Positions 2,338 to 57,109 of a stretch of 64,000 nt of DNA are shown here, piece by piece. The notes beneath the pieces were generated by a model. It was not told the origin of the DNA and made no database searches. It saw only the letters and a program-made list of their open reading frames with translations. This DNA comes from Propionibacteriaceae bacterium (GTDB lineage: Bacteria; Actinomycetota; Actinomycetes; Propionibacteriales; Propionibacteriaceae): positions 56,537-120,536 of the forward strand of contig JAFKJK010000012.1 of assembly GCA_017306015.1 (NCBI GenBank). Reading direction: 5' to 3'. The position numbers and the translations under genes are program-made. How positions within the stretch are numbered: the stretch's first letter is position 1; every line of letters starts with the position of its first letter.

Positions 2338-3822
<1,485 letters not shown>

Positions 3823-3923
3823 TCACTGCCGCATCCCGCGCACTGGCGTCCCGGCGACCCCGGCCACCCGCCCGATTAGGCTGTCACCGCGACATCCCAG
3901 CCGTCCGAAAGGCCTGTGAGCCC

Positions 3924-6900
3924 GTGCCCGACCCGTTCGTCCTCACCAGCTACCCCGGCGGCAACGCCCTCTCTCCCTTCCGCACGTCCACCCTGCTGCA
4001 ACGCCTGCGGGCAGCCGTGCCAACGGTGACGGCGGTCAGCGCGCGCCACGTGCACTGGGTGGCCAGCCAGGACGCGCTCGACGACGCCACCGCCGGCATC
4101 GTCCGCCGCCTGCTCGACTACGGTCCGGACGCCGGCAGCCCGGCCACCGGTGCGCACACCACCCAGCTCACCGTCGCGCCCCGGCTGGGCACCCTGTCGC
4201 CGTGGGCGTCCAAGGCCACCGACATCGCCCACAACTGCGGCGTCCCGATCCGACGGGTCGAGCGGGTCACCGTCTACACGATCGCCTCGTCCCTGCCCTT
4301 GTCGGACGACCATTGGACGGCCTGCGCCGACCTCCTGCACGACCGGATGACCGAGTCGGTGTTCGCCTCGCTCGCCGACTCCGCCGCCCTGTTCGACGCC
4401 CGCGAAGCCGACCCGATGGCCCACGTCGACGTCCTCGGACACGGTCGGGCGGCCGTCGAGGACGCGAACACCACCTTCGGCCTCGCCCTGTCCGACGACG
4501 AGATCGACTACCTCGTCGATGCCTTCACCGGGCTGCGGCGCAACCCCACCGACGTCGAGCTGACCATGTTCGCGCAGGCCAATTCCGAGCACTGCCGACA
4601 CAAGATCTTCAACGCCGACTTCATCGTCGACGACGCCCCGGAGGAGTCGTCCCTGTTCGGGATGATCCGGCACACCGAGCAGGTCGCCGGCCAGCACACC
4701 GTCGTCGCCTACTCCGACAACTCCTCGATCATGGAGGGCGGCCCGGCCACCCGCTGGACGCCGGAGGCACCCGGCGCGCCCAGCCCGTATGCCGCCCGTC
4801 CCGACGACGTGCACGTGCTGATGAAGGTGGAGACCCACAACCACCCCACCGCGATCAGCCCCTTCCCGGGGGCGGCCACCGGCTCCGGCGGCGAGATCCG
4901 CGACGAGGGCGCGACCGGACGCGGCTCGCAGCCCAAGGCGGCCCTGACCGGCTTCGCCGTCTCCAACCTGCACCTGCCCGGCACGTCCGAGCCGTGGGAG
5001 GCCGACGACTACGGCGCGCCGGACCACATCGCGTCCGCGCTCGAGATCATGACCGCCGGCCCGCTGGGTGGTGCCGGGTTCAACAACGAGTTCGGCCGGC
5101 CCGGGCTCGGCGGCTTCTTCCGGGTGTACGAGCAGACCGTCGCCGGCGTCCGCCGTGGCTACCACAAGCCGATCATGAGTGCCGGCGGGCTCGGCGCGAT
5201 CTCGGCGTCCCAGACGCACAAGGTGGCCTTCGACGAGGGGACGCTGCTGATCCAGCTCGGCGGCCCCGGCATGCGGATCGGCATGGGCGGTGGCGCGGCG
5301 TCCTCGATGGCGTCCGGGACGAACGCGGCCGAGCTCGACTTCGACTCCGTCCAGCGCGGCAACCCGGAGATCCAGCGGCGCGGCCAGGAGGTCATCAACG
5401 CCTGCTGGAGCCTTGGCGAGGCCAACCCGGTCCTGTCGATCCACGATGTCGGCGCCGGCGGACTCAGCAACGCCTTCCCCGAACTCGTGGACGGTGCCGG
5501 CCTCGGTGCATGGTTCGACCTCGCCGCCGTCCCGGTCGAGGAGTCGGGGCTCGCGCCCAAGGAGATCTGGTGCAACGAGAGCCAGGAACGCTACGTGCTG
5601 GCGATCGCGCCGGCGGACCTGGAGCGGTTCGCGGCGCTGTGCGAGCGGGAGCGCTGCCCGTTCGCCGTCGTCGGTGTGGCCCGGGCGGACGGTCAACTCG
5701 TGCTGGCCGGCCCGGACGACGAGGCCTGGGACAACAAGACCAGGCGCGACGCGGCCAGGAGCGACGCGACCAAGAGCGACGCGGCCAGGAGCGACCGGCC
5801 GATCGACATGCCCATGGACGTACTGCTCGGCAAGCCGCCGCGGATGACCCGCGACGTCACCCGCGTCACCTGGACCGCTCCCCCACTGGAGCTCGCCGAC
5901 ATCGACCTGCGTGAGGCCGCGTACGCCGTGCTGCGGCATCCGTCGGTGGCCTCGAAGCGGTTCCTGATCACGATCGGCGACCGTTCGGTTGGCGGACTCA
6001 ACCACCGCGACCAGCTCGTCGGGCCCTGGCAGGTGCCGGTCGCCGACGTCGCGGTCACCCTGACCGACTACTTCGGCCTGGCCGGCCAGGCGATGGCCTC
6101 GGGCGAGCGGACGCCGCTGGCTGCGATCGACGCGCCGGCGTCCGGACGGATGGCGGTCGGCGAGGCCCTGACAAACCTGCTCGCCGCGCCCGTCGCCCCG
6201 GGATCCCCTCCCCTCCCCCCGGGCACCCCTCCCGTCATCCCGGTCTCCCCTCCCGTCGTCCCGGGCTCCGACCCGGGATCCCCGGCGGCCGTCCAGGGAT
6301 CCGCTCCCGACTCCCCTGCCGACGCCCCAGGCACCCCTCCCTCCATCCCAGGTTCCCCTCCCGTCATCCCAGGTTCCCCTCCCGTCGTCCCGGGCTCCGC
6401 CCCGGGATCCCCGGCGGCCGTCCAGGGATCCGCCCCCCACTCCCCTCTCGGCTCCCCGGTCACCCCTCCCGTCATGCCGGCCTCCCCTCCCGTCATCCCG
6501 GGCTCCGACCCGGGATCCCCGGCGGGCGCCTTGGAACGGGTCAAGCTCTCCGCCAACTGGATGGCCGCCTGCGGCGAGCCGGGCGAGGACGCCGCGCTGT
6601 ACGACACCGTCCACGCCGTCGCGATGGAGCTGTGCCCGGCACTCGGCATCTCGATCCCGGTCGGCAAGGACTCGCTCTCGATGCGCACCCGCTGGACGGA
6701 TCCGTCCGGCGAGGTCCGCCAGGTGACGTCCCCGGTGTCACTGGTGGTCTCGGCGTTCGCGTCCCTGGACTCGGTGGCCGACACCTGGACGCCGGAGCTC
6801 CAGCCCGGCTCCGCTCTGCTGCTGGTGGACCTCGGAGCCGGCCGGAACCGGCTCGGCGGCTCGATGCTGGCCCAGGTGACCGGCCAGTTCGGCGATGTGG

Positions 6901-8231
6901 TGCCGGACCTGGACGACCCGTCCCGGCTGCTGCGGCTGGCGTCCGCGCTGACCGAACTGCGGGCCGAGGGTCTGGTCACCGCGTACCACGACCGCTCGGA
7001 CGGCGGGCTGTGGGCCTGTGTCTGCGAGCTGGCGTTCGCCGGTTCCACCGGTGTCGAGTTCGACGTCGCCGACCTCCCGGCGCTGTTCAGCGAAGAGCTG
7101 GGCGTGGTGCTCGGAGTCGCCGAGGCCGACGTCGATCGGGCGCTCACGATCCTCGCCGAGCACGACCTGGGCGACCTCAGCCGTCCCATCGGACGAACCA
7201 CCGACGACCGTCGCGTCCGCGTGCAACGGTCGCTGGCCGAGCCCGTCGAGGCCGAGCCCGCCGAGACCAACGTCCTCCTCGACGAGGACCTCCGCGACCT
7301 CGCGCAGGCCTGGGACGAGGTCTCCTGGCGGATCTCCGCGCTGCGCGACAACCCCGAATGCGCCGACTCCGAACACGCCGCCGTGGGCGCGGACGTGCCG
7401 GGGCTGGTGGTTGCGCCCACCTTCGAGCCCGACGAGGACATCGCCGCGCCGTTCATCAACACCGGGGTGCGGCCGAAGGTCGCCGTCCTGCGCGAGCAGG
7501 GGGTGAACAGCCACGTCGAGACGGCCTTCGCGTTCGACCGGGCCGGCTTCGAGGCGTGGGACGTCCACATGACCGACCTGCAGGCCGGACGGTTCGACCT
7601 CACCGACGTCGTCGGCCTGGTCGCCGGCGGCGGTTTCTCCTACGGCGACACCCTCGGTGCCGGCGAGGGCTGGGCGAGATCGATCCTGTTCAACCGGCGG
7701 CTCACCGACGCGTTCGCCGCGTTCTTCGACCGCTCGGACACGTTCGCGCTGGGAATCTGCAACGGCTGCCAGATGTTCGCTGCTCTGGCCGACCTGATTC
7801 CGGGGACGGACGCCTGGCCGCGGTTCACCCGCAACCGCTCGGAGCAGTTCGAGGGCCGGCTCAGCCAGGTGGAGGTGCTCGACTCGCCGTCGATCTTCTT
7901 CACCGGGATGGCCGGCAGCCGGCTCCCGGTCGCGGTGGCGCATGGGGAGGGTTTCGCCGACTTCTCCGTCCGCGGGAACGAGGCGGCGGTCGTCCGCGCC
8001 GTCCGGTTCATCGACGCGACCGGCGCTCCGGCGTCCACCTACCCGGCGAACCCGAACGGCTCTCCCGACGGCCTCACCGCGGTCACCACCCCGGACGGCC
8101 GGTTCACCGCGATGATGCCGCACCCCGAGCGAGTCGCCCGCAACGCGCAGCTCTCCTGGACCGACGGCCCGACCGAAGGGCCCAGTCCCTGGCTACGGAT
8201 GTTCCGCAACGCCCGGGTCTGGGCGAGCTGA
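3924..8231 (+). CDS. purL: Phosphoribosylformylglycinamidine synthase, single-chain large type, carrying two in-frame repeat insertions
   Basis: From ORF 3741..8231. GTG 3924 was chosen because [20 protein letters not shown] aligns with the E. coli PurL N-terminus. Motifs: [47 protein letters not shown], and the glutaminase GICNGCQM...MMPHPER. Confidence 0.93.
5745..5795. repeat. 15-bp tandem repeat (about 3.4 copies) inside purL
   Basis: gcgcgacgcggccagg/agcgacgcgaccaag/agcgacgcggccagg/agcgac, translated [17 protein letters not shown]. Confidence 0.8.
6198..6527. repeat. In-frame 330-bp insertion in purL: 129-bp tandem units containing CCCGGG hairpins (family 2)
   Basis: The unit cccctcccgtcgtcccgggctccgacccgggatccccggcggccgtccagggatccgc occurs at ~6248 and ~6377, with a partial third copy at ~6484. 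It shares cccctcccgtcatcccgg and atcccggg...cccgggat with 24.03-24.11 kb and 40.3-41.2 kb. Confidence 0.85.
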
Positions 8232-8425
8232 ACCATCGGGGACAGGTACTTTCGTTCAAACGTGAACCACCGGGGACAGTGAACCATCGGGGACAGGTAC
8301 TTTCGTTCAGACGGGAACGACCGCAACGTCCGTCCGGCCGGTTTCAGCTCGAGGTGAACCGAAGTACCTGTCCCCGATGGTTCACACGCACGAGGTGAAC
8401 CGAAGTACCTGTCCCCGATGGTTCA
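8229..8425. repeat. Family-1 repeat cluster A (2 forward, 1 partial, 2 reverse copies of the 30-nt TGAACC...GGTTCA element)
   Basis: tgaaccatcggggacaggtactttcgttca at 8229 and 8280. The reverse form tgaaccgaagtacctgtccccgatggttca is at 8356 and 8396. The first TGA is the purL stop codon. Confidence 0.9.
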
Positions 8426-12529: not shown

Positions 12530-14332
12530 ATGCGAAGGCTCGCCTCAGTCCTGGCCGCGGCAGTACTGGTCGCGACCGGACTGCTCAGCGTCCCGGCCAC
12601 GACGGCGCAGGCTGCGCCCACCTGGTACGACGGCGCGATCCAGTACTCCTCGATCATCAACTGCCCGTCGATGATCGGCGGCTATCCGTACACCGAGAAG
12701 GGCGTCGGCACCTACGCCGGCTATCGCGCGGATCCCTCGGCGACCTATCCCGCGCCCGGCGACATCTACTGGGTCCACCTCGTGGTCGCCGGGATGGGCC
12801 TGCCGTGCAGCGGTGGGAGCCGCGTCCTGCCCAGCCTGGTGCTGCCGGCGAACACCTCGCTGGCGGTCGACGCAACGCACAAGATCACCTGCTACGCCAC
12901 CGGCGCCCTGGACACCGGGGACTGCCCGACCACCCTGGCGACCGGCGGTCCCAGCGGGTCGCTGTACATCCTCTCCCCGGACACCGCGAACGGACGGACC
13001 TGGCCGCTGCCCCAGGGCAAGAACTTCGAGTTCCAGATCCCGGTGCAGTCGGACCGTCCGCTCACATCCTCGATCTTCGGGTTCTACGTCCAGGTCGCGG
13101 ACGGCAATGCCAACCCGACCCTGATCCCCACCCAGAACGCCTATGTGTACGCCAAGGCTCCCGCGGTCACCTACCCGGCACCGTCGACGACCGGCATCGG
13201 CAACACCGCGGCGGTCTCCAACGCGGTCCTGTATTCCGGCGGCAGCGCCGGGACGGGCTACTTCGACATTGGAACCACGACGTCCTACGGGCTGTTCAGC
13301 GACTCCATCTCGGTGCCGGCCGGTGGCCCGTACTTCACCGTGAACACTGACTGGAAGACCTCCGGCGGGACCTCGGTCCTGCAGCCGGGCACGACCTATC
13401 ACTGGCGGTTCCGTTACGTCACGTCCAGTGGCACCTACTCCGGCGCCGACCAGACCTTCACGACGACCGGGACGGCTGGCGGCGGAACCGGCGGCGGAAC
13501 CGGCGGCGGGACTGGCGGCGGCACGGGTGGCGGGACCGGCGGCGGGACCGGCGGCGGAACCGGCGGCGGGACCGGTGGCGGGACTGGCGGCGGCACGGGT
13601 GGCGGAACCGGCGGCGGCACGGGTGGCGGTACCGGCGGCGGAACCGGCGGCGGAACCGGCGGCGGGACCGGCGGCGGGACCGGTGGCGGCTCGACCGTGA
13701 CCTCACCGGCGACCGCGTCCGTCGTCACCTGGTCGCTCGCCAGCAAGGCGAAGGTGACCTGGAAGACGACGTCGGGCGCGAAGCCGTCGAAGTACGACGT
13801 CCGCTATCGGGTGGCCAGCGCGACCGGCGGCTACGGCTCCTACAAGACGTGGAAGTCCAAGACCAAGGCGAAGTCGGCCAAGCTCACGGTGAAGCTCGGG
13901 AAGTCGTACTGCTTCTCGTCGCGGGCGCGGTACTCGAACGGCACGCTGTCGACGTGGAGCGCAGAGACCTGCACGTCCACCGCACTGGACGACCGCAAGC
14001 TCGTCCGGTCCGGGTCCTGGAAGAAGGAGAAGGCCAAGAAGGCGATCGCCAAGACGGTCTCGACGAGTACCGCTGCCGGCAGCAGCCTGACCGCCCGGCA
14101 CGCACCGGTGAAGCGGTTGGCGCTGGTCTACACCCGGGGAGCCGGCTTCGGCTCGGTCACGGTGAGCGTCGGCGGGACCAACCTGGGCACGTTCAGCCTG
14201 GCCGGAGGCAAGAGGACGAAGGCCGTCCTGACACTGCCGGCGCTGGGTTCCACGGTGACGGGGGACGTCGTGGTCACGACCACCGGTGGTGCGAAGGTCG
14301 TCATCGACGCGTTACTGCTCTCGCGTCAGTGA
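12530..14332 (+). CDS. Secreted multidomain protein: unknown N-terminal domain, FN3-like domain, (GGGT)x18 linker, FN3-like domain, C-terminal beta-rich domain
   Basis: From ORF 12134..14332, trimmed to ATG 12530, which gives the signal peptide MRRLASVLAAAVLVATGLLSVPATTAQA. FN3-like stretches are LQPGTTYHWRFRYVTSSGTYSGADQTFTT and KPSKYDVRYRVAS...YCFSSRARYSNGTLSTWS. Confidence 0.8.
   Translation: MRRLASVLAAAVLVATGLLSVPATTAQAAPTWYDGAIQYSSIINCPSMIGGYPYTEKGVGTYAGYRADPSATYPAPGDIYWVHLVVAGMGLPCSGGSRVLPSLVLPANTSLAVDATHKITCYATGALDTGDCPTTLATGGPSGSLYILSPDTANGRTWPLPQGKNFEFQIPVQSDRPLTSSIFGFYVQVADGNANPTLIPTQNAYVYAKAPAVTYPAPSTTGIGNTAAVSNAVLYSGGSAGTGYFDIGTTTSYGLFSDSISVPAGGPYFTVNTDWKTSGGTSVLQPGTTYHWRFRYVTSSGTYSGADQTFTTTGTAGGGTGGGTGGGTGGGTGGGTGGGTGGGTGGGTGGGTGGGTGGGTGGGTGGGTGGGTGGGTGGGTGGGTGGGSTVTSPATASVVTWSLASKAKVTWKTTSGAKPSKYDVRYRVASATGGYGSYKTWKSKTKAKSAKLTVKLGKSYCFSSRARYSNGTLSTWSAETCTSTALDDRKLVRSGSWKKEKAKKAIAKTVSTSTAAGSSLTARHAPVKRLALVYTRGAGFGSVTVSVGGTNLGTFSLAGGKRTKAVLTLPALGSTVTGDVVVTTTGGAKVVIDALLLSRQ
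13476..13692. repeat. 12-bp coding tandem repeat, about 18 copies, encoding (GGGT)n
   Basis: ggcggcggaacc-type units with synonymous variation (gga/ggg/ggc/ggt; acc/act/acg). The peptide repeat itself is perfect. Confidence 0.92.
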
Positions 14333-14437: not shown

Positions 14438-14615
14438 TGAACGAAAGTACCTGTCCCCGACGGTTCACCGGCGAACGAGAGTACCTGTCCCCGACGGTTC
14501 ACCTGGGCCTGAACGAAAGTACCTGTCCCCAACGGTTCACCTGGGCCTGAACGAAAGTACCTGTCCCCGACGGTTCACCTGGGCCTGAACGAAAGTACCT
14601 GTCCCCGACGGTTCA
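14438..14615. repeat. Family-1 repeat cluster B: five same-orientation copies, three of them in a 38-bp tandem period
   Basis: tgaacgaaagtacctgtccccgacggttca repeated, with the conserved 8-nt linker cctgggcc. Confidence 0.9.
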
Positions 14616-14634
14616 GGTGGGCTAGCTTTGCTGC

Positions 14635-19485: not shown

Positions 19486-19905
19486 TGAACCGTGGGGACA
19501 GGTACTTCGGTTCACAGCGGCAACTCACCTGGGGGCAGGTGAACCGCGGGGACAGGTACCTCGATTCAGGAGACCGAGCCTGAACCACCGGGGACAGGTA
19601 CCTCGGTTCAGGAGACCGCGCTGACCTGCGGCCGCGCCCTGCCGCCAAGGCTCGGCCTGCGCCGAAGGCTGCTCGCCTCCGCGACACACTCGCAGCATCA
19701 GCGACGGACGGACCGCCTCGGACGGCCAGCATCATTCACTGCGCCCGCAAACGTGTCGCAACGCGGCGAGCCTGAGCCATCGGGGACGGCCTGAACCATC
19801 GGGGACAGGTACCTCGGTTCAGGAGACCGAGCCTGACCATCGGGGACAGGTACCCCAGTTCACACAGGCGAGCCTGCACCCATCGGGGACAGGTAGCTCG
19901 GTTCA
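19486..19905. repeat. Family-1 repeat cluster C (six full copies and one partial, all forward, with a ~160-bp unique interruption)
   Basis: Copies start at 19486, 19540, 19581, 19792, 19834 and 19875. Several share the linker ggagaccgagcc. Confidence 0.85.
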
Positions 19906-19958
19906 GACAGGCGGACGCTACCTCGACGCAGGCGCAGGACGGCGGTCCCTCCGCCCGC

Positions 19959-20078
19959 GACCCCGGGCGCCATCCCGCCAACGACCCCGACCCCGGGCAC
20001 CATCGCACCAACGACCCCGACCCCGGGCACCATCAAACCAACGACCCCCACCCCGGGCACCATCGCGCCCGCAACCCG
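19959..20078. repeat. 30-bp tandem repeat x4 upstream of the ABC substrate-binding protein gene
   Basis: gaccccgggcaccatcgcaccaacgacccc and variants, starting at 19959, 19989, 20019 and 20049. Confidence 0.85.
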
Positions 20079-20187
20079 CCCCCCGACCGTGATCAGACCG
20101 TAACCAGAAAGCCCCTTTTCAGTTACAAGGTTTCCAGTTAGGCTGCGAGCAACCGCCGAAGTCGCCGGAACCAGCTGAAGGAGCCAG

Positions 20188-22897: not shown

Positions 22898-23861
22898 CCA
22901 CAGCCCCGGCGCGAAGGCGGACCGGTTCGCCGGCGTCCGCTACCTGATGCCCACCTGGTCGGCCAAGCTCGGCGTCGGTCTGGTCCTCGTCGTGCTCATC
23001 GTGGCGTTCGGCCTCGTCGGCCCGGTGTTCGCCGTCGACCCGCGCGACTCCAGCTACAAGGGGCTGCAGCCGCCGTCCAGCGAGCACCTGCTGGGGACGA
23101 CCAAGCTCGGCTACGACGTGTTCGCCCAACTGGCCACCGGGACGCGCGAGTCGCTGTACGTCGGCCTGGTCGGCGGCCTGGTGGCGATGTTCCTGGCGAT
23201 CGTGTTCGGGATCATCGCCGGGTACTTCGGCGGCTGGCTGGACGACATCCTCATGCTGGCCACCAACATCATGCTGGTGATTCCCGGCCTGCCGCTGGTG
23301 ATGGTGATCGCCGCCTACGTCCAGAACACCGAGGGGCTCGGCGACTTCGCCCGCTCCGCCACGCTGGTGGCGATGATCCTCGGCGTCACCGGCTGGGCCG
23401 GCTCGGCGGTGGTGCTCCGGGCCCAGGCCCGGTCGTTGCGGACGCGCGAGTACGTCTATGCGTCCCGGGTGGCCGGTGAGAAGGGGTTGCGGATCATCTT
23501 CGTCGAGATCCTGCCGAACCTGGTGCCGCTGATCGCGGCCCAGCTGATCTTCGGCGTGATGGCCGCCGTCCTCGGCGAGGCCGGGCTGAGCTACCTCGGC
23601 CTCGGTCCGACCAACTCGATCACCCTGGGCACGATGCTGAACGACGCGCAGACCGGGCAGGCGGTCGGCTCCCACGCGTGGTGGTGGTTCGTGCCACCCG
23701 GCGTCATGATCGCGCTGCTCGGCACCGGGCTGGCCCTGGTCAACTTCGCGATCGACGAGATCGTCAACCCCAAGCTGCGCCTGGCCCCGAAGGCCGCCCG
23801 GCAGCAGCGCAAGGCGATGAAGGCCGGCAAGGGTGTCGCCGGAGGAGGTGCGTACGCATGA
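22887..23861 (+). CDS. ABC transporter permease (DppC/OppC-like)
   Basis: 324 aa, OppC-like (HLLGTTKLGYDVFAQL, EYVYASRVAGEKGLRII). It overlaps the upstream permease gene by 11 nt. Confidence 0.88.
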   Translation: MTSDHSPGAKADRFAGVRYLMPTWSAKLGVGLVLVVLIVAFGLVGPVFAVDPRDSSYKGLQPPSSEHLLGTTKLGYDVFAQLATGTRESLYVGLVGGLVAMFLAIVFGIIAGYFGGWLDDILMLATNIMLVIPGLPLVMVIAAYVQNTEGLGDFARSATLVAMILGVTGWAGSAVVLRAQARSLRTREYVYASRVAGEKGLRIIFVEILPNLVPLIAAQLIFGVMAAVLGEAGLSYLGLGPTNSITLGTMLNDAQTGQAVGSHAWWWFVPPGVMIALLGTGLALVNFAIDEIVNPKLRLAPKAARQQRKAMKAGKGVAGGGAYA

Positions 23862-25282
23862 GTTCACCTGACGGATCCACCATGCCTGTCGCCCCCGCCC
23901 GTCCGGTTACCCCCACCCCTCCTGTCACCTCAACCACTTCTGATACTCCTGCCACTTCTGTCACCTCCACCCCGCCTGTCACTTCAACCCTTCCTGTCAC
24001 TCCCGCCACTTCTGTCACCCCCACCCCTCCCGTCAGCTCCACCCCTCCCGTCATCCCGGCGAAAGCCGGGATCCCCGGACGCCTGACCGGGATCCCGGGT
24101 CAAGCCCGGGATGACGAAGCGGGGCGGAACGATGACGAAGCGGGGCGAGATGATGACGAAGCGCGGCTGGACAACGAAGGACGGGCGGTTCTCACCGCGA
24201 AGCACGTGTCGATCACCTACGAGGTCGACCCGCCCGTGGACGCCGTCCGCGACGTCTCGCTGACCTTGCACCGTGGCGAGATCCTCGGCCTGGCCGGGGA
24301 GTCCGGCTGCGGCAAGACCACCTTCGCGTACGGCGTGAACCGGCTGCTGAAGGCGCCGGCGGTGATGACCTCCGGCGAGGTCACCTTCCACGACCGTTCC
24401 GAGGGCGACATCGACGTCGGCTCCCTGGACGCGGAGGAGCTGCGCCAATTCCGCTGGGACAAGGTGTCGATGGTCTTCCAGGGGTCGATGAACTCGCTCA
24501 ACCCGGTGATGACCGTCCGGAACCAGCTCGCCGACGTGTTCACGACCCACCGTCCCGAGCTCCCGGGGCACGCCCGCGACGCCCGCTGCGCCGAACTGCT
24601 GCAACTGGTCGGGGTCGACCCGGGCCGGCTGTCGGCCTATCCGCACGAGCTCTCCGGCGGCATGCGGCAGCGGGTGATGATCGCGATGGCGCTGGCGCTG
24701 GATCCGCAGCTGATGATCATGGACGAGCCCACCACCGCGCTGGACGTGCTCGTGCAACGCGGTATCATCCGGCAGATCATGCGGCTGCGGGAGCGCCTCG
24801 GCTTCGCGGTGATCTTCATCACCCACGACCTGCCGCTGCTGATCGAGATCAGCGACCGGATCGCGATCATGCGCGACGGCCAGATCGTCGAGACCGGGAC
24901 GGCCGAGCGGATCTACCGCGACCCGCAGCACGACTACACCAAGCAGTTGCTCGCCAGCTTCCCGAGCCTCACCGGGGAACGCGGCGGCTTCGTCCGCACT
25001 GGATCGCGGGATGGCCGGGACGACATCCCGGTGGGCACCGCGATCTCCGCACGCCAACCAACGGGGATCCCGGGTCATCCCGGCGAAAGCCGGGACCTCG
25101 ACACCGGACCGCACGGCCAGCCATCGGAGATCCCGGGTCGAGCCGGGGACGACACGCGTCGCCGGGACGACACGCGTGGCTGGGACGGCTCGACAGCCCG
25201 GGACGACGAGGGTCGAGCAGGCGGCGACGACGATCGAGCCCGGGATGACGGGTTGCTCAGCGGCGAAGGAGGCGAGCGATGA
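23858..25282 (+). CDS. ABC transporter ATP-binding protein (OppD/DppD-like) with repeat-derived N- and C-terminal extensions
   Basis: Core: Walker A GESGCGKTT, signature LSGGMRQRV, Walker B LMIMDEPTTALD. ATG 23858 overlaps the upstream stop. An alternative GTG start at 24206 would remove the PT-rich, hairpin-encoded N-terminal ~115 aa. No in-frame stop occurs before 25282, so the ~95-aa C-terminal extension must be translated. Confidence 0.8.
   Translation: MSSPDGSTMPVAPARPVTPTPPVTSTTSDTPATSVTSTPPVTSTLPVTPATSVTPTPPVSSTPPVIPAKAGIPGRLTGIPGQARDDEAGRNDDEAGRDDDEARLDNEGRAVLTAKHVSITYEVDPPVDAVRDVSLTLHRGEILGLAGESGCGKTTFAYGVNRLLKAPAVMTSGEVTFHDRSEGDIDVGSLDAEELRQFRWDKVSMVFQGSMNSLNPVMTVRNQLADVFTTHRPELPGHARDARCAELLQLVGVDPGRLSAYPHELSGGMRQRVMIAMALALDPQLMIMDEPTTALDVLVQRGIIRQIMRLRERLGFAVIFITHDLPLLIEISDRIAIMRDGQIVETGTAERIYRDPQHDYTKQLLASFPSLTGERGGFVRTGSRDGRDDIPVGTAISARQPTGIPGHPGESRDLDTGPHGQPSEIPGRAGDDTRRRDDTRGWDGSTARDDEGRAGGDDDRARDDGLLSGEGGER
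23880..24165. repeat. Repeat block at the 5' end of the ATPase gene: short cctgtcac-type repeats, family-2 hairpins H2 and H1, then an 18-bp gatgacgaagcggggcgg-type repeat x3
   Basis: tcatcccggcgaaagccgggatcc (24053) and gatcccgggtcaagcccgggatgac (24090) match the units of the 40.3-41.2 kb array. Confidence 0.85.
25068..25150. repeat. Family-2 hairpins inside the 3' extension of the ATPase gene
   Basis: tcccgggtcatcccggcgaaagccgggacc (25068-25097) and gatcccgggtcgagccggggacgac (~25128). The first matches 37529-37558 with one mismatch. Confidence 0.85.
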
Positions 25283-28409: not shown

Positions 28410-29368
28410 ACCCGGTCGTCGTCGCCGTGGACGGCGGCGGCTCGAAGATGGACGCGGTCGCGGTCGACCTGGCCGGGATGGTGGTGGGACGTGCCGTCGG
28501 CCCCGGCGGCTACCCGCAATTCGGCGGGCTGGCACGCTCGGTCGCGCAGGTGGACGGGCTCGTCCGCGCGGTCGCCGGCGGCGCGCCGGTGGTGCGGGCC
28601 GGCCTGTACCGGTGCGGCCTCGACCTGCCCCAGGAGGTGTGGGCGTATCGGGACGCGGTCGCCGGCCGCGACTGGGCGTCCTGCGGCGTCGACGTTGAGA
28701 ACGACCTGTTCGCCCTGCTGCGAGCCGGCACCCGGGAGCCGGACGCGGTCGCGGTGGTCTGCGGCACCGGGATCAACGCGATCGGCCGGCGCGCCGACGG
28801 CGCGGACGTCCGGTTCGCCTCGCTGGGGCGGGTCTCCGGCGACTGGGGCGGCGGAGGCGGCCTCGGCGAGGAGGCGATGTGGCACGCCGCGCGGGCAGAG
28901 GATGGCCGCGGCCCGGCCACTGAGCTGGCGACAGCGGTTCGGGACCACTTCGAGGTGGCCTCGATCGCCGACCTGATCGCGCAGTTCCACTTCGGGCAGC
29001 GCGACACCGATCAACTCCGGGACCTGTCCCCGGACGTGCTGCGGCTGGCCGACTCCGATGCCGTCGCCGGTGCGCTCGTCGACCGACAGGCCGATGAGGT
29101 CGTCACGATGGCCGTGACCTGCCTGCGCCGCCTCCACCTGCTGGAGGCCGCCGTCCCGGTGGTGCTGGGCGGCGGCGTCCTGCGTTCCGGCAACCGGCGG
29201 CTGATGGACGGCATCGCTGCCGGACTGGCCGCCGCCGCACCGCTCGCCCGCATCGTCCACGTGTCGGCCCCGCCGATCCTGGGCGCCGCGCTGCTCACGC
29301 TGGAGGCGGCCGGCGCACCGGCGTCGGCACTGGAGGCGACCACCGAGGCCCTGCGTCACCCCGCCTGA
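28400..29368 (+). CDS. BadF/BadG/BcrA/BcrD-type ATPase (N-acetylglucosamine-kinase-like sugar kinase)
   Basis: 322 aa; VVAVDGGGSKMDAVAV and VCGTGINAIG are ASKHA/BadF-type motifs. The stop TGA (29366-29368) is the first triplet of a family-1 repeat. Confidence 0.75.
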   Translation: MGLNPVVVAVDGGGSKMDAVAVDLAGMVVGRAVGPGGYPQFGGLARSVAQVDGLVRAVAGGAPVVRAGLYRCGLDLPQEVWAYRDAVAGRDWASCGVDVENDLFALLRAGTREPDAVAVVCGTGINAIGRRADGADVRFASLGRVSGDWGGGGGLGEEAMWHAARAEDGRGPATELATAVRDHFEVASIADLIAQFHFGQRDTDQLRDLSPDVLRLADSDAVAGALVDRQADEVVTMAVTCLRRLHLLEAAVPVVLGGGVLRSGNRRLMDGIAAGLAAAAPLARIVHVSAPPILGAALLTLEAAGAPASALEATTEALRHPA

Positions 29369-29658
29369 ACCGTCGGGGACAGGTACTTCGGTTCACCCGC
29401 CGCCTGAACCGTTGTCACCCCGCCTGAACCATTGGGGACAGGTACTTCGGTTCACCCGCCGCCTGAACCGTCGGGGACAGGTACTTCGGTTCACCCTGCG
29501 CCCGAGCGCCTGAACCGTTGGGGACAGGTACTTCGGTTCACCCTGCGTGCGATCAGCGCCGCGGCCGGACTGAACGAAAGTACCTGTCCCCGTCGGTTCA
29601 TGTCCCCGTCGGTTCACGATGGTTCAGACTGAACGAAAGTACCTGTCCCCGACGGTTC
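29366..29658. repeat. Family-1 repeat cluster D (four forward, two reverse and two partial copies)
   Basis: Forward copies at 29366, 29426, 29463 and 29509; reverse copies at 29570 and 29629; partial copies at 29404 and 29600. Confidence 0.9.
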
Positions 29659-29722
29659 AGCCCAACGGTTCAGCGGGGATGCCTGGGTGGGCCAGAATGC
29701 TGTCAACCGACGAGGGGGAGTC

Positions 29723-40195: not shown

Positions 40196-40339
40196 CGCTA
40201 ACGAAGATCGGCGGCCATCCCAAACGGGTGCGCAAGCCTGCGTAGGCGATTCACTCAATCGTTACACCAGCGCAGCGGAGCTGGTTCCTGCCACCCGGCA
40301 CCTCGCTCGGGCGGAGCGGGAGCGCGCCAAGCGACGGCT

Positions 40340-41215
40340 GTCGTCCAGGCGTGCGCCGGGACCTCCGCCGGACAGCGCCCCCTTCTCCGGGAAGAGATCC
40401 CGGGTCAAGCCCGGGACGACAAGCCCAGCCGGAGCCCAGCCGCCCGGCTGGGCCTCACCCCGCCCACACCCACCAGCCGCACCCGCCATCGCCGCGAAAG
40501 CCGGGACCTCCGCCGAACAGCGCCCCCGTTCTCCGGGAAGAGATCCCGGGTCAAGCCCGGGACGACAGACCAAGCGAGATCACACCCTGCCGGGCTCACG
40601 ACCCAGCCGCACCCACTCGTCATCCCGGCGAAAGCCGGGACCTCCACCGAACAGCCGTACTCACGGACGCGATCCCGGGTCAAGCCCGGGACGACAGAAC
40701 CCAGGCGAGAACACACACCCGGCCGGGTCCACGTCCCAGCCACGCCCACTCGTCATCCCGGCGAAAGCCGGGACCTCCGCCGGAAAGCAGCCGTACTCCC
40801 GAGACGCGATCCCGGGTCAAGCCCGGGATGACGACCTTTGCAGTTCGACCATGACCACTGCGACCGCGTCCCTGTCATCCCGCCGAACGCCGGGACCTCC
40901 GCCGAACAGCGCCCCCTTCTCCGGGAAGAGATCCCGGGTCAAGCCCGGCACGACAGGAACCAGGCGAGAACACCCGGCCGGGTCCACGTCCCAGCCGCAC
41001 CCACTCGTCATCCCGGCGAAAGCCGGGACCTCCGCCGGAAAGCAGCCGTACTCCCGAGACGCGATCCCGGGCCAAGCCCGACGACGACCTCTGCAGTTCG
41101 ACCACGACCACGGCGACCGCGTCCCCGTCATCCCGGCGCACGCCGGGACCTCCGCCTAACAGCACCCCGTTCTCCGAGACGAGATCCCGGGTCAAGCCCG
41201 GGACTACCCACCCCG
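40340..41215. repeat. ~875-bp intergenic array of seven composite family-2 units (120-137 bp each)
   Basis: H2 (cgtcatcccggcgaaagccgggacctccgcc) occurs near 40350, 40487, 40619, 40752, 40875, 41007 and 41127. H1 (gatcccgggtcaagcccgggacgac) occurs near 40396, 40542, 40671, 40809, 40930, 41063 and 41183. The inter-hairpin segments are also related, with a ~256-bp higher-order repeat. Confidence 0.9.
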
Positions 41216-50329: not shown

Positions 50330-50367
50330 ACAGACGGGTCCGTCCCCGCTCACCCCGTCCCCGGTCC

Positions 50368-50487
50368 TGAACCGAAGTACCTGTCCCCGACGGTTCACCC
50401 GGTCACCGGTCCTGAACCGAAGTACCTGTCCCCGACGGTTCGCCCGGTCACCGGTTCTGAACCGAAGTACCTGTCCCCGACGGTTCA
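50368..50487. repeat. Family-1 repeat cluster E: three reverse-orientation copies, 45-bp period
   Basis: tgaaccgaagtacctgtccccgacggttca at 50368, 50413 and 50458, with the linker cccggtcaccggtcc. Confidence 0.9.
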
Positions 50488-50497
50488 GCCGGGAGGG

Positions 50498-53655: not shown

Positions 53656-54123
53656 GTGTCCTCCCCTGGCCTGGACCGGCTGACCGACCTGCTGCACACG
53701 CGGGGCGAGCGGCTGACACCGGCGCGCACCGCGGTCCTCGGCGTTCTTGAGCAGCAGGCGGGCCATCTGACCGCTGAGGAGATCGTCGACCTGGTGGCGG
53801 TCGCGGCACCGGACGTCCACCGCGCCAGCGTCCATCGCACGCTCGACCTGTTCAGCCGGCTGCGGCTCGTCCAGCACCTGCACCCGAGCCACGGCCCGGC
53901 GCTGTACCACCTCGTCGACGGCCACGGGCACGAGCACGTCCACGCCGAGTGCCGCTCGTGTGGACGGATCATCGATCTGCCGGACGGGATCCTGGACGAT
54001 GTTGCCGCGCGGCTGCTCGCCGAGACCGGTTTCGACCTGCACGCCGGCCACGTCACGCTGTCCGGGCTGTGCCGCGCCTGCCAACCTGAACCATCGGGGA
54101 CAGGTACTTCGGTTCAGCCGTGA
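53656..54123 (+). CDS. Fur-family metalloregulator, Nur-like (putative nickel-responsive)
   Basis: GTG 53656. RGERLTPARTAVLGVL, SVHRTLDLFSRLRLVQHLHPSHGPALYHL, HVHAECRSCGRIID and GLCRAC parallel the S. coelicolor Nur sequence as I recall it. The last 13 aa are encoded by a family-1 repeat. Confidence 0.8.
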   Translation: MSSPGLDRLTDLLHTRGERLTPARTAVLGVLEQQAGHLTAEEIVDLVAVAAPDVHRASVHRTLDLFSRLRLVQHLHPSHGPALYHLVDGHGHEHVHAECRSCGRIIDLPDGILDDVAARLLAETGFDLHAGHVTLSGLCRACQPEPSGTGTSVQP

Positions 54124-54235
54124 ACCATCGGGGACAGGTACTTCGGTTCAGCAACGCCGGTGAACCGAAGTACCTGTCCCCAACGGTTCAGTCCCGGTGG
54201 TTCGGTGAACCGAAGTACCTGTCCCCGGCGGTTCA
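54087..54235. repeat. Family-1 repeat cluster F (two forward and two reverse copies)
   Basis: Forward copies at 54087 and 54121, reverse copies at 54161 and 54206. The TGA of the second copy is the Fur-family gene's stop codon. Confidence 0.9.
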
Positions 54236-54320
54236 GGGGTTCACGGATGGCTCAATTGCCCGCTCTGGACGGACGGCGGTCGACCCGGTGGCGGCCTGGG
54301 CTATCGTGACGGGAGCCTTA

Positions 54321-56239: not shown

Positions 56240-57029
56240 CGTCCTGCTCAGCGGAGAGCGGCTGGGCCACCGCTATCTCGACCGCTTTCCCGCGCTCGAC
56301 GACGTGTCCCTCGAGCTCCGCGAAGGCGAGGCGCTGGCGCTGCTGGGCGCGAACGGGTCCGGGAAGTCGACGCTGCTGAAGGTGCTGGCGGGGCTTGTGC
56401 CCTGCCAGTCGGGAACGCTGACGGCGTTCGGCGAGCCGGTGAGCGAAGAGGCCCTGGCCGACCATGCCACCAACGCGAGGTTCCGCAGCCGGGTGGGGCT
56501 GGTGTTCCAGAACCCGGCGGCCCAGCTCTTCTCCGCCACGGTCGAGGAGGATCTGCGGTTCGGTTGCCGCCAACTGGGGCTGGACGCGGCCGAGACCGGA
56601 CGCCGGGTCGCCGAGGCGGCCGACCTGCTGGGGATCGGCGAGTTGCTCGACCGGTCACCGGCACACCTGTCGGTCGGCCAGCAGAAGCGGGCGGCGATCG
56701 GCTCGGTGCTGGTGATGAGTCCGCAGGTGCTGCTGTTCGACGAGCCGACCGCCTCTCTCGACCCGCGGACGGCGGACTGGCTGACCGGGCTGCTGCGGTC
56801 GCTCCGCGATGCCGGACGGACGCTGGTGATCGCGACCCACGACCTGGACCTGGCCGCAGCGGTGACGGACAGGTGCCTCGTCCTGGGCGAGGACCATCGG
56901 CCGGCCGCGACGGGCCCGACCCCCGCGGTGCTGGCCGACCAGGATCTGCTGACGGAGGCCAACCTCGTCGCGCCATCGGCCTCTCGTCATCCCGGGCACC
57001 CGCCCTCGATCACCGTCGAACGCCGGTGA
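56229..57029 (+). CDS. ECF transporter ATPase, CbiO/NikO
   Basis: Walker A GANGSGKST, signature LSVGQQKRAAI, Walker B LLFDEPTASLD. The start is uncertain (TTG 56229 or CTG 56244). Confidence 0.8.
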   Translation: MSGDVLLSGERLGHRYLDRFPALDDVSLELREGEALALLGANGSGKSTLLKVLAGLVPCQSGTLTAFGEPVSEEALADHATNARFRSRVGLVFQNPAAQLFSATVEEDLRFGCRQLGLDAAETGRRVAEAADLLGIGELLDRSPAHLSVGQQKRAAIGSVLVMSPQVLLFDEPTASLDPRTADWLTGLLRSLRDAGRTLVIATHDLDLAAAVTDRCLVLGEDHRPAATGPTPAVLADQDLLTEANLVAPSASRHPGHPPSITVERR

Positions 57030-57109
57030 CACCCCATGTGATCCCGGCTGACGTCGGGAGATCACCAACCCTCTGTTCGCACTAGTACTGCATCATCTAG
57101 GATGCGGCC

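Follow-up and report, generated by a model that had tools for sequence, protein, structure and literature searches.

In-frame tandem repeats of variable number (VNTRs) are familiar from bacterial genes, for example as repeats of the mycobacterial interspersed repetitive unit (MIRU) type and as contingency-locus repeats. Palindromic DNA has reportedly also been found in frame within protein-coding genes, namely as the Rickettsia palindromic elements (RPEs) described by Ogata et al. in Science in 2000. In-frame RPE insertions in housekeeping genes are established (PMC10969869; PMC3733652), and RPE-4 and RPE-6 are repetitive extragenic palindromes (REPs) of the CGTC type (PMC3733652). CGTC-tagged REPs, with the families CGTC-1 to CGTC-4 (Di Nocera, De Gregorio and Rocco, 2013, BMC Genomics 14:522; PMC3733652), consist of an unpaired CGTC tag (variants TGTC and CCTC), an 8–9-bp stem with A-T at positions one and two, a loop that has 4 nt in family 1 and 5 nt in families 2–4, with other lengths noted in some families, and a short unpaired 3′ tail with the consensus CCA (PMC3733652). 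They occur as many interspersed, mainly extragenic copies, mostly in head-to-head dimers with head-to-tail pairs being negligible, and show no transposase association; in-frame copies within genes are on record, among them clusters that encode 43–82 amino acids (aa) in Thauera and R. conorii, and the listed hosts are Proteobacteria, Chlorobi, Bacteroidetes, Spirochaetes and Thermotogae, with no Actinomycetota among them (PMC3733652). REP doublets forming hairpins (REPINs), on the other hand, are inverted doublets of the GTAG type, which are extragenic and tied to a single-copy REP-associated tyrosine transposase (RAYT) (PMC3116915). The present analysis concerns a 64,000-nucleotide stretch of a Propionibacteriaceae bacterium (assembly GCA_017306015.1, contig JAFKJK010000012.1), in the following called the window, in which the purine biosynthesis gene purL carries an in-frame insert of 330 bp, or 110 codons, at positions 6198–6527. 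This insert is very probably a cluster of CGTC-tagged REPs which has become part of the purL reading frame, was tandemly amplified and is carried along as an essentially neutral in-frame passenger.

The purL gene lies on the plus strand and encodes a large single-chain formylglycinamidine ribonucleotide (FGAM) synthetase. Its open reading frame (ORF) spans 3741–8231, and the GTG codon at 3924, which yields 1435 aa plus stop, is a plausible start with a GAAAGG motif upstream (ORF list and start-codon check). All Pfam domains of PurL are intact (FGAR-AT_N, linker, AIRS_C, FGAR-AT_PurM_N-like and GATase_5), with the second PurM_N-like domain (PF22689) being matched as two stretches, the first of which ends at residue 758 and profile position 82, so that this domain is split by the insert. 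A structure search aligned the protein to Salmonella PurL (PDB 1t3t; E = 0) in two blocks, query residues 11–757 with chain residues 14–736 and query residues 868–1431 with chain residues 737–1299. As the two blocks are adjacent in the Salmonella chain, the insert is a clean interruption between its residues 736 and 737. The segment of about 110 codons rich in proline, glycine and serine, which the original prediction had placed between two conserved PurL motifs, is present as described, and the spacing of about eight residues that it gave for these motifs in E. coli PurL agrees with the enterobacterial sequence in the Salmonella alignment. The insert encodes PGSPPLPPG...DPGSPAG. As neither Lys nor Arg occurs in it, a tryptic peptide of about 130 residues (MAVGEAL...GALER) would result. 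An intein or another excised element was considered and rejected, with the insert reading PGSPP...SPAG followed by A and containing no Cys, no His-Asn and no Pfam domain. A protein search with the insert alone yielded 2259 word-sharing candidates, none of which, PurL included, reached E <= 0.001, a result that is uninformative owing to the bias correction for low complexity and does not speak for the absence of similar segments from other proteins. A literature search for the repeat sequence and its peptides gave no literal match.

The insert is restricted to a narrow lineage. Among 120 PurL relatives found in a protein search, the best one (P0001) is 98% identical and has the same length of 1435 aa. 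The 119 next-closest orthologues (at most 84% identity), which belong to Propionicimonas, Propionicicella, Intrasporangium and similar genera, all lack the insert and read LLAAPV(E/T)LxRVKLS at the site, with a loop of 15, 16, 18 or 19 residues. As the loop length of the orthologues already varies between 15 and 19 residues, the notion of the insertion site being a tolerant loop is supported. The claim that the insert is lineage-specific holds as well, as the alignment to these 119 proteins and to Salmonella PurL shows no homologous segment at the site. The 90%-identity cluster of the window PurL has seven members, of which P0001, P0123 and P0125 contain the 110-aa insert and P0122 contains 31 aa. 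For DNA comparisons, the alleles and the empty site in L001, L004, L190, L003 and L002 were used. An intact in-frame purL with insert is found in five assemblies, namely the window and four others from the same species-level lineage, of which three have the 330-bp form and one has the 93-bp form, and the empty site (L002) reads ...GCT CCC GTC GAG CTG GAG CGG... Three allelic states exist, therefore: empty, 93 bp and 330 bp. The 330-bp alleles and the 93-bp allele (L003) differ by 237 bp, which is the distance between two identical 30-mers of the insert (Table 1), and recombination or slippage between these would produce exactly the 93-bp allele.

With the same junctions being present in five independent assemblies from different samples, an assembly artefact, which had been a concern from the outset, is not the source of the insert; the four further assemblies carry it in frame at the same site. 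It is true that repeats are a classic source of mis-assembly and that one Logan contig (P0126) breaks exactly at the insert, and the analysis covers a 64-kb window of the genome, which leaves room for the idea that this purL is a non-coding pseudogene with another FGAM synthetase being active. Yet, the flanks of the insert are under purifying selection (41 synonymous and 19 non-synonymous substitutions), the Pfam domains are all retained and tblastn found no purL paralogue in the 64-kb window. Both forms of this explanation, mis-assembled repeat reads and a pseudogene, are hardly credible. The essentiality of this particular purL is assumed, a second FGAM synthetase elsewhere in the genome being possible.

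Tandem Repeats Finder resolved positions 6189–6506 into 2.5 copies of a 129-bp period (83% matches, 0 indels) with a nested 21-bp sub-period of 14.9 copies. Tandem 129-bp units which keep the reading frame had been predicted, and only their copy number has to be changed from 2.6 to 2.5; 330, 129 and 21 are all divisible by three. Each unit opens with two or three 21-bp copies, consisting of a CCCCGGG/TCCCGG arm, 4 nt and CCTCCCGTC(A/G). Three direct hairpin copies share one layout of CGTC tag (at 6254, 6383 and 6491), 8-bp stem, CTCCGA-type loop, return stem and CCC. The stem of copy 3 (ATCCCGGG/CCCGGGAT) is a perfect 8 bp, that of copies 1 and 2 (GTCCCGGG/CCCGGGAT) has 7 bp and a terminal G-T pair. 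Palindromes of the predicted form atcccggg-N6/7-cccgggat are present, but their spacer is always 6 nt, and the perfect ATCCCGGG arm occurs in the third copy only. As DNA, the single hairpins reach -7.6 to -8.6 kcal/mol. The RNA fold of the whole insert was no better than that of shuffled sequences (minimum free energy -139.4 versus a mean of -139.43 kcal/mol, z = 0.01) and contained only local hairpins. The pattern ATCCCGGG-N{4,9}-CCCGGGA matches 12 times in the window versus 0.00 expected, and all matches lie in the purL insert, at 24092–24112 or in an array at 40.4–41.2 kb. The 16-mer CCTCCCGTCATCCCGG, with up to 2 mismatches, also has 12 matches in the window versus 0.21 expected, in purL and the other repeat sites as well as at 25240 and 56980, with exact copies at 6228, 6486 and 24044. 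These counts agree with the prediction that the palindromes and a shared string recur in an ABC ATPase gene and the hairpins in an intergenic array at 40.3–41.2 kb. An Rfam scan of the window returned no family at its gathering score.

Membership in the REP family was assessed by a covariance model (R1) built from 35 distinct left-hand REPs of other organisms, none of which came from the window, and run with filters off. As the 35 REPs were chosen by a GTC start and a perfect 8-bp stem, their 100% pairing is circular, and the E-values of R1 are rough owing to a short calibration. At E < 0.01, R1 had 18 matches in four loci of the window, three in purL, two at 24049–24116, two at 25073–25154 and eleven at 40339–41203. 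All three purL matches are full-length and on the plus strand, which is in line with the REP-type repeat origin that had been proposed for the insert. Among the alleles, the empty site of L002 gave no match and the short allele gave one. The purL stems begin with A-T pairing and have the length of 8 bp known from CGTC REPs (with the terminal G-T pair in copies 1 and 2), and their tail is CCC versus the consensus CCA, with CCC, CTC and CCG tails all occurring among the 35 reference REPs. Going by their tag, their stem and the score of the model, and with a tail that also occurs among the reference REPs, the hairpins of purL are of the CGTC type.

Repeats of this kind are found in a wide range of bacteria. 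A 20-mer of the second hairpin in the two-hairpin dimers found elsewhere in the window, searched in one genome per species, had exact matches in at least 120 stretches, and among the matches listed are Alpha- and Betaproteobacteria, Bacteroidota, Cloacimonadota, Patescibacteria, Binatia and others, also Propionicimonas and Micropruina. There, the 20-mer makes up the right-hand member of a head-to-head pair, and the left-hand member differs from locus to locus with changes that compensate each other in the stem. A metagenome scan for TCCCGGGCTCCGMCCCGGGATCC returned 79 stretches on contigs with a GC content of 36–74%, in most of which it is the left, tagged partner in a head-to-head dimer. REP cores were identical over 20–29 nt across very different phyla and base compositions, for example in a contig with 36% GC (L140), which suggests horizontal spread or a conserved recognizing factor. 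A near counterpart of the purL hairpins lies in the metagenome contig L165 (GC 0.69) of a related high-GC organism, which contains an intergenic-looking array of four dimers between two ORFs. One REP of this array is identical to purL 6247–6288 at 40 of 42 positions, including the flank CCyCTCyCGTCG and the tail CCCCGGCGG, a match with z = 12.8–14.6 versus dinucleotide shuffles.

These findings also bear on the idea that the segment arose de novo, by slippage from the native GCGCCCGTCG, with the palindromes and the resemblance to REPs being by-products of C-rich DNA. The 21-bp units begin within the native codons at 6189–6195, purL has two other allele-variable in-frame repeats (5740–5800 and 7235–7265), and the RNA fold of the whole insert equals that of shuffles (z = 0.01), all of which would fit a de novo expansion. 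It would, however, not lead one to expect three full-length R1 matches with tag, stem and tail and a CTCCGA loop shared with unrelated bacteria, nor the identity to an extragenic REP of L165 that includes the flanks, nor exact REP copies in 79 unrelated metagenome stretches, nor a palindrome pattern with a chance expectation of 0.00. In addition, the spacer of the long allele aligns to a complete REP dimer and is not derivable from the 21-bp unit. A de novo expansion is largely refuted by this evidence and appears quite unlikely.

Given R1, the near-twin in L165 and the 119 orthologues, the core of the original prediction, a REP-type repeat which entered a tolerant PurL loop and is carried in frame, is supported. 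The entry would have taken place after the split from the lineage of P0002, the PurL of which is 84% identical and has an empty site, and before the divergence of the present strains (97–98% nucleotide identity). REP DNA would have entered PurL at codon 738/739, in the loop between a helix and the strand VKLSANWM of the second PurM_N-like domain, by insertion or template switch, directly 3′ of the native CCCGTCG, a look-alike of the tag. This CCCGTCG left of the junction resembles the repeat's own flank plus CGTC tag, with the empty allele reading CTCCCGTCG and the REP flank with its tag CCTCCCGTC(A/G), and it may have served as target or seed for the entry. The filled site reads CCCGTCGCC/CCGGG... 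on its left and ...GGCGGGCGCC/TTGGAA on its right, as compared to CCCGTCG/AGCTGGAG in the empty one (slashes mark the junctions), and the right junction is not a simple restoration of the empty site (GCC TTG GAA versus GAG CTG GAG). The attribute MITE-like (miniature inverted-repeat transposable element) in the prediction did not stand up, with no transposon terminal inverted repeats, no clear target-site duplication and no parent insertion sequence being identified at the junctions. A local alignment matches the purL unit to the complete dimer at 24049–24116, through the spacer up to GGGATCC (z = 6.3–8.1 versus shuffles), which suggests that each 129-bp unit descended from a dimer with a decayed inverted partner. 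The make-up of the units from two or three half-REPs, a full REP and a spacer would reflect a tendency towards tandem arrays that is intrinsic to the element, and strains probably differ in length because direct REP copies recombined unequally or slippage occurred between them. As the C-rich strand is free of stop codons and the periods are 21 and 129 bp, the frame survives and a segment rich in Pro, Gly, Ser and Val results, which most likely forms a disordered surface loop.

The codons of the insert had been described as unlike those of the flanking purL sequence, and the counts agree: the GC content of third codon positions (GC3) is 0.80 in the insert versus 0.937 in the rest of purL, and 10 of 38 proline codons in the insert are CCT versus 0 of 84 outside (Fisher p = 3.4e-6). 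Between the window and L001, the insert has 1 synonymous and 4 non-synonymous substitutions and the flanks have 41 and 19 (Fisher p = 0.049), and one stem pair of the first hairpin is lost in L001 with no compensation. The purL genes of the window and of L190 show four differences over their full length, of which two lie inside the insert. The insert has no stop codon in any of its three forward frames, so that any length divisible by three, as given by the periods of the element, keeps the frame. A gain of function under selection could nevertheless be imagined, either as a proline-rich linker or interaction surface or as a hairpin role at the level of mRNA or DNA, with purinosome-like assembly, the envelope, translational pausing for folding, RNase protection and gyrase binding as examples. 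In its favor, five assemblies have an uninterrupted reading frame, the insert is still present after approximately 1.5–3% nucleotide divergence, and RNA- and DNA-level roles have been proposed for REPs (PMC3733652). But frame preservation is no argument, as selection on the enzyme alone removes purL frameshifts, non-synonymous substitutions outnumber synonymous ones in the insert, the sister allele retains only 31 of 110 residues, the broken L001 stem was not compensated and the codon usage is unadapted. Functional gain is therefore improbable. The word "maintained" in the original prediction goes too far for the same reasons: there is no sign of selection, most substitutions change the amino acid, and a sister allele has one hairpin that is decaying. 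Considering the ratio of substitutions, the broken hairpin, the 31-aa allele and the unstructured whole fold, the insert is probably a tolerated, unconstrained passenger.

Several points weigh against the reading of the insert as a CGTC-REP cluster that is carried as a passenger. The purL loop (CTCCGA/CTCCGC) has 6 nt versus the published 4–5 nt. As the CTCCGA loop recurs in otherwise typical REPs of unrelated bacteria (L024 and L099), the published loop range appears too narrow. The purL REPs are arranged head-to-tail, 129 and 108 bp apart, and not as dimers; the other copies in the window (24049–24116, 25073–25154 and 40339–41203) are head-to-head dimers. No significant inverted partner was found in purL by R1, the best minus-strand match having 11.2 bits. 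At most an ambiguous 3-nt GCC repeat could be taken as a target-site duplication at the purL junctions, and no transposase was seen in the window, for which neither a systematic ORF annotation nor a targeted RAYT search was made. As neither a target-site duplication nor a transposase was seen, the entry could equally be explained by a template switch or by gene conversion with a REP array as the source. The 93-bp allele originates from a short-read metagenome contig; as it differs from the long alleles at approximately 8 of 87 insert positions and its other purL repeat is longer, not shorter, it is an allele of its own, which a simple collapse during assembly would not explain. The surface position of the segment is suggested by the variable orthologue loop and by the general PurM-fold topology, and an AlphaFold2 model of PurL residues 200–1100 with 22 close homologues was unusable (mean predicted local distance difference test score 38.9, predicted template modeling score 0.32). 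Translation of the insert would follow from the intact frames in five assemblies, and the selection test is based on only 5 insert substitutions.

The 21-bp sub-repeats of the purL insert are tandem half-REPs, that is, the tag and the 5′ stem arm with no return arm. Such arrays are also present elsewhere. At positions 1–150 of L125, TAGACCCCGTCATCCCGGGCG occurs at least three times before a full REP, and L152, L160, L132 and L186 are similar. In 60 non-redundant REP contexts, GTCATCCC-like motifs were found upstream at offsets of 21 (four times), 22 (once), 24 (six times), 42 (twice), 63 (once) and 84 nt (once). At the opposite dimer end, GGATGAC occurs again 18–21 nt downstream in 8 of 109 REPs, with three in tandem in L019. 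As the same arrays exist in unrelated organisms, the 21-nt period belongs to the repeat family itself and did not arise to suit the reading frame. A word search of PMC3733652 found no mention of 21-nt half-REP arrays. It is conceivable, although rather doubtful at present, that CGTC REPs grow at their tagged end by copies of half-REPs of about 21 nt, seeded at CGTC-like motifs such as the CCCGTCG of purL. The period of about 21 nt would then correspond to roughly two helical turns, the 0-, 93- and 330-bp alleles of purL and the Pro/Thr-rich N-terminus of the ABC ATPase described below would be snapshots of the process, and near-identical cores at 36–74% GC would indicate a conserved host factor or mobile factor which recognizes the repeat. 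If this were true, such growth would quite generally give rise to proline-rich disordered segments within bacterial proteins, even in core enzymes, as 21 is a multiple of three and the C-rich strand is free of stop codons.

Table 1. Positions of purL, its insert and the REP loci in the window.
Feature	Position	Strand	Remarks
purL	3924..8231	+	GTG start, 1435 aa + stop; Pfam, 1t3t match
Native CCCGTCG (Pro-Val codons) at left junction	6189..6195	+	also in sister-lineage empty site L002: GCTCCCGTCG/AGCTGGAG
In-frame insert, 330 bp/110 codons	6198..6527	+	splits PF22689 after profile position 82
Unit A: approximately three 21-bp half-REPs	6196..6253	+	CCCCGGG/TCCCGG then CCCCTCCCGTC; Tandem Repeats Finder and direct reading
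REP copy 1	6254..6282	+	CGTC-GTCCCGGG-CTCCGA-CCCGGGAT-CCC; R1 32.7 bits, E = 1.9e-6; DNA hairpin -8.0 kcal/mol
Spacer after REP copy 1	6283..6318	+	GGGATCC, possible remnant of inverted-partner REP (CCGGCGGCCGTCCAGGGATCCGC...)
Unit B: second 129-bp unit	6319..6447	+	three half-REPs, REP copy 2, spacer
REP copy 2	6383..6411	+	CGTC-GTCCCGGG-CTCCGC-CCCGGGAT-CCC; R1 29.1 bits, E = 1.8e-5
Unit C, partial	6448..6527	+	two half-REPs, REP copy 3, right junction ...CCCCGGCGGGC
REP copy 3, best preserved	6491..6519	+	CGTC-ATCCCGGG-CTCCGA-CCCGGGAT-CCC; R1 39.6 bits, E = 2.6e-8; DNA hairpin -8.6 kcal/mol
Identical 30-nt direct repeats (TCCCGGGCTCCGACCCGGGATCCCCGGCGG)	6259..6288 and 6496..6525	+	237 bp apart
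18-bp-period Pro/Thr-rich coding repeats (TPPVTS...)	23885..24053	+	upstream of 24049–24116 dimer; Tandem Repeats Finder
Head-to-head REP dimer, complete	24049..24116	+	5′ coding part of ABC ATPase gene (23858–25282); R1 40.6 and 43.7 bits
REP dimer, 3′ coding extension of ABC ATPase ORF	25073..25154	+	R1 E = 4.5e-4 and 2.2e-3
Array of approximately 7 REP dimers	40339..41203	.	between glycosyltransferase-like gene and purA; eleven R1 matches with E < 0.01

Outside purL, the window contains REPs as dimers of approximately 70–90 nt with two hairpins (GTCATCCCGGCGAAAGCCGGGAyC ... GATCCCGGGTCAAGCCCGGGAyGAC). They fit the CGTC definition, reading CGTC-ATCCCGGC-GAAA-GCCGGGAT-CC and, in reverse complement, CGTC-ATCCCGGG-CTTGA-CCCGGGAT-CC, and the array between the glycosyltransferase-like gene and purA is the extragenic population of the same family. 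Two dimers lie in the ORF of an ABC ATPase (OppD/DppD-like), which looks like two further in-frame REP invasions in the same 64 kb. Translation of the 5′ dimer gives PVIPAKAGIPGRLTGIPGQARDD, the frame being the one that yields PPVIPG in purL. The 18-bp-period repeats preceding it are probably degenerate half-REP copies (CCYGTCAC...); 21-bp repeats starting with GATGAC follow it at 24110–24167, and 18–21-bp tail repeats extend from the 3′ dimer up to 25255. The ATPase gene has ATGA overlaps with the upstream permease gene and with the next ATPase gene, and there is no in-frame start codon between the 5′ dimer and the conserved ATPase core, so that approximately 110–130 N-terminal residues are repeat-derived. 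The Pfam domain ABC_tran covers residues 131–293, and approximately 98 C-terminal residues after the oligo_HPY motif are REP-coded (25000–25280). An isolated degenerate REP-like remnant at 56980–57060 (CCTCTCGTCATCCCGGGCACC ... GATCCCGGCTGACGTCGGGAGATC) stays under the R1 threshold.

A second, unrelated interspersed family consists of TGAACC-(N)-GGGGACAGGTAC-(N)-GGTTCA hairpins of approximately 38–45 bp, often in tandem, at 8262–8296, 14438–14622, 19540–19910, 29355–29674, 50350–50492 and 54087–54236. It occupies apparent intergenic gaps, including the one directly 3′ of the purL stop, and has no match in Rfam. It is also present in the metagenome contig L163 (8327–8446 and 13062–13290), which comes from the same sample as L165 and contains both repeat families of the window. 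In addition, a tandem repeat with a 12-bp period (GGCGGCGGGACC; 17.7 copies, 86% matches, also scored at 48 bp) at 13478–13689 may be a Gly-rich coding repeat, and a repeat with a 30-bp period (CGACCCCGGGCACCATCGCACCAACGACCC; 3.6 copies) at 19958–20085 adjoins the TGAACC/GGTTCA hairpins.

PurL itself contains further length-variable repeats. At 5740–5800 (codons ~606–626), a 15-bp in-frame tandem repeat with RSDAA/KSDAA units (4.1 copies) forms a second length-variable loop, for which Salmonella PurL has no residues; its copy number and sequence vary by allele, with about six units in P0122. A third small in-frame repeat of 15 bp (2.1 copies) lies at 7235–7265, and allele P0123 lacks one 5-aa unit, VEAEP. 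Other Propionicimonas-like PurL proteins (P0066, P0057, P0061, P0040, P0041, P0062, P0024 and P0030) have different repeat-like inserts at other loops, namely +101 and +86 aa of the PSTSSGNG type near 884, +45 aa (STTRTPNPAQHA... repeats) near 975 and +26 aa near 886. The PurL of this clade seems to be a recurrent host of in-frame repeat DNA.

The purL insert implies that a core metabolic enzyme of a free-living high-GC actinobacterium can harbor selfish palindromic repeats well inside one of its conserved catalytic-domain folds, with the cases documented until now being mainly from Rickettsia and a few Proteobacteria. The publicly available empty, 93-bp and 330-bp alleles are rare natural material on the origin, growth, shrinkage and cost of such an insert, and REP ends together with 21-nt arrays would offer a way, open to testing, in which repeat DNA could turn into protein sequence of low complexity. 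For annotation, this would account for odd proline-rich linkers and over-long ORF ends in REP-rich genomes.

In comparison to the known systems, the in-frame insertion of REPs or RPEs into housekeeping genes is already established as a kind. New are the phylum Actinomycetota, purL as target, the size of 110 aa, the three allelic states and the connection with half-REP arrays of 21 nt; a search of the supplementary files of PMC3733652 did not reveal purL as a CGTC-REP target. Like CGTC REPs, the purL copies have the unpaired CGTC tag, an AT-starting 8-bp stem and a short tail, and the extragenic dimers of the window have 4-nt (GAAA) and 5-nt (CTTGA/TCAAG) loops as published. Unlike the published ones, they have an actinobacterial host, and the purL copies have a 6-nt loop, a CCC tail and a head-to-tail order; at 110 aa, the segment is also larger than the published clusters of 43–82 aa. 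With RPEs, the insert shares palindromic DNA in frame in a housekeeping gene, the presence or absence between close relatives and a position that, as reported for RPEs, probably lies in a tolerant surface region. RPE-1-type elements, however, are single units of approximately 100–150 bp that encode a conserved peptide, and their host is an obligate intracellular alphaproteobacterium with AT-rich DNA, whereas the purL host is free-living with ~70% GC, its peptide is proline-rich and of low complexity, and the block is tandemly amplified and length-polymorphic. The dimers at 24049–24116 and in the array at 40.3–41.2 kb are similar to REPINs, which are inverted doublets of ~70–110 nt, but unlike the REPINs of the GTAG type they are CGTC-tagged, a type reported to occur with no transposase. 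Finally, the insert resembles in-frame VNTRs in that its unit lengths are multiples of three and its copy number varies between strains, probably by slippage or recombination. Unlike VNTRs, the purL unit belongs to what is probably a genome-wide interspersed palindromic family, and its host gene encodes a core biosynthetic enzyme and is not a surface or contingency gene.

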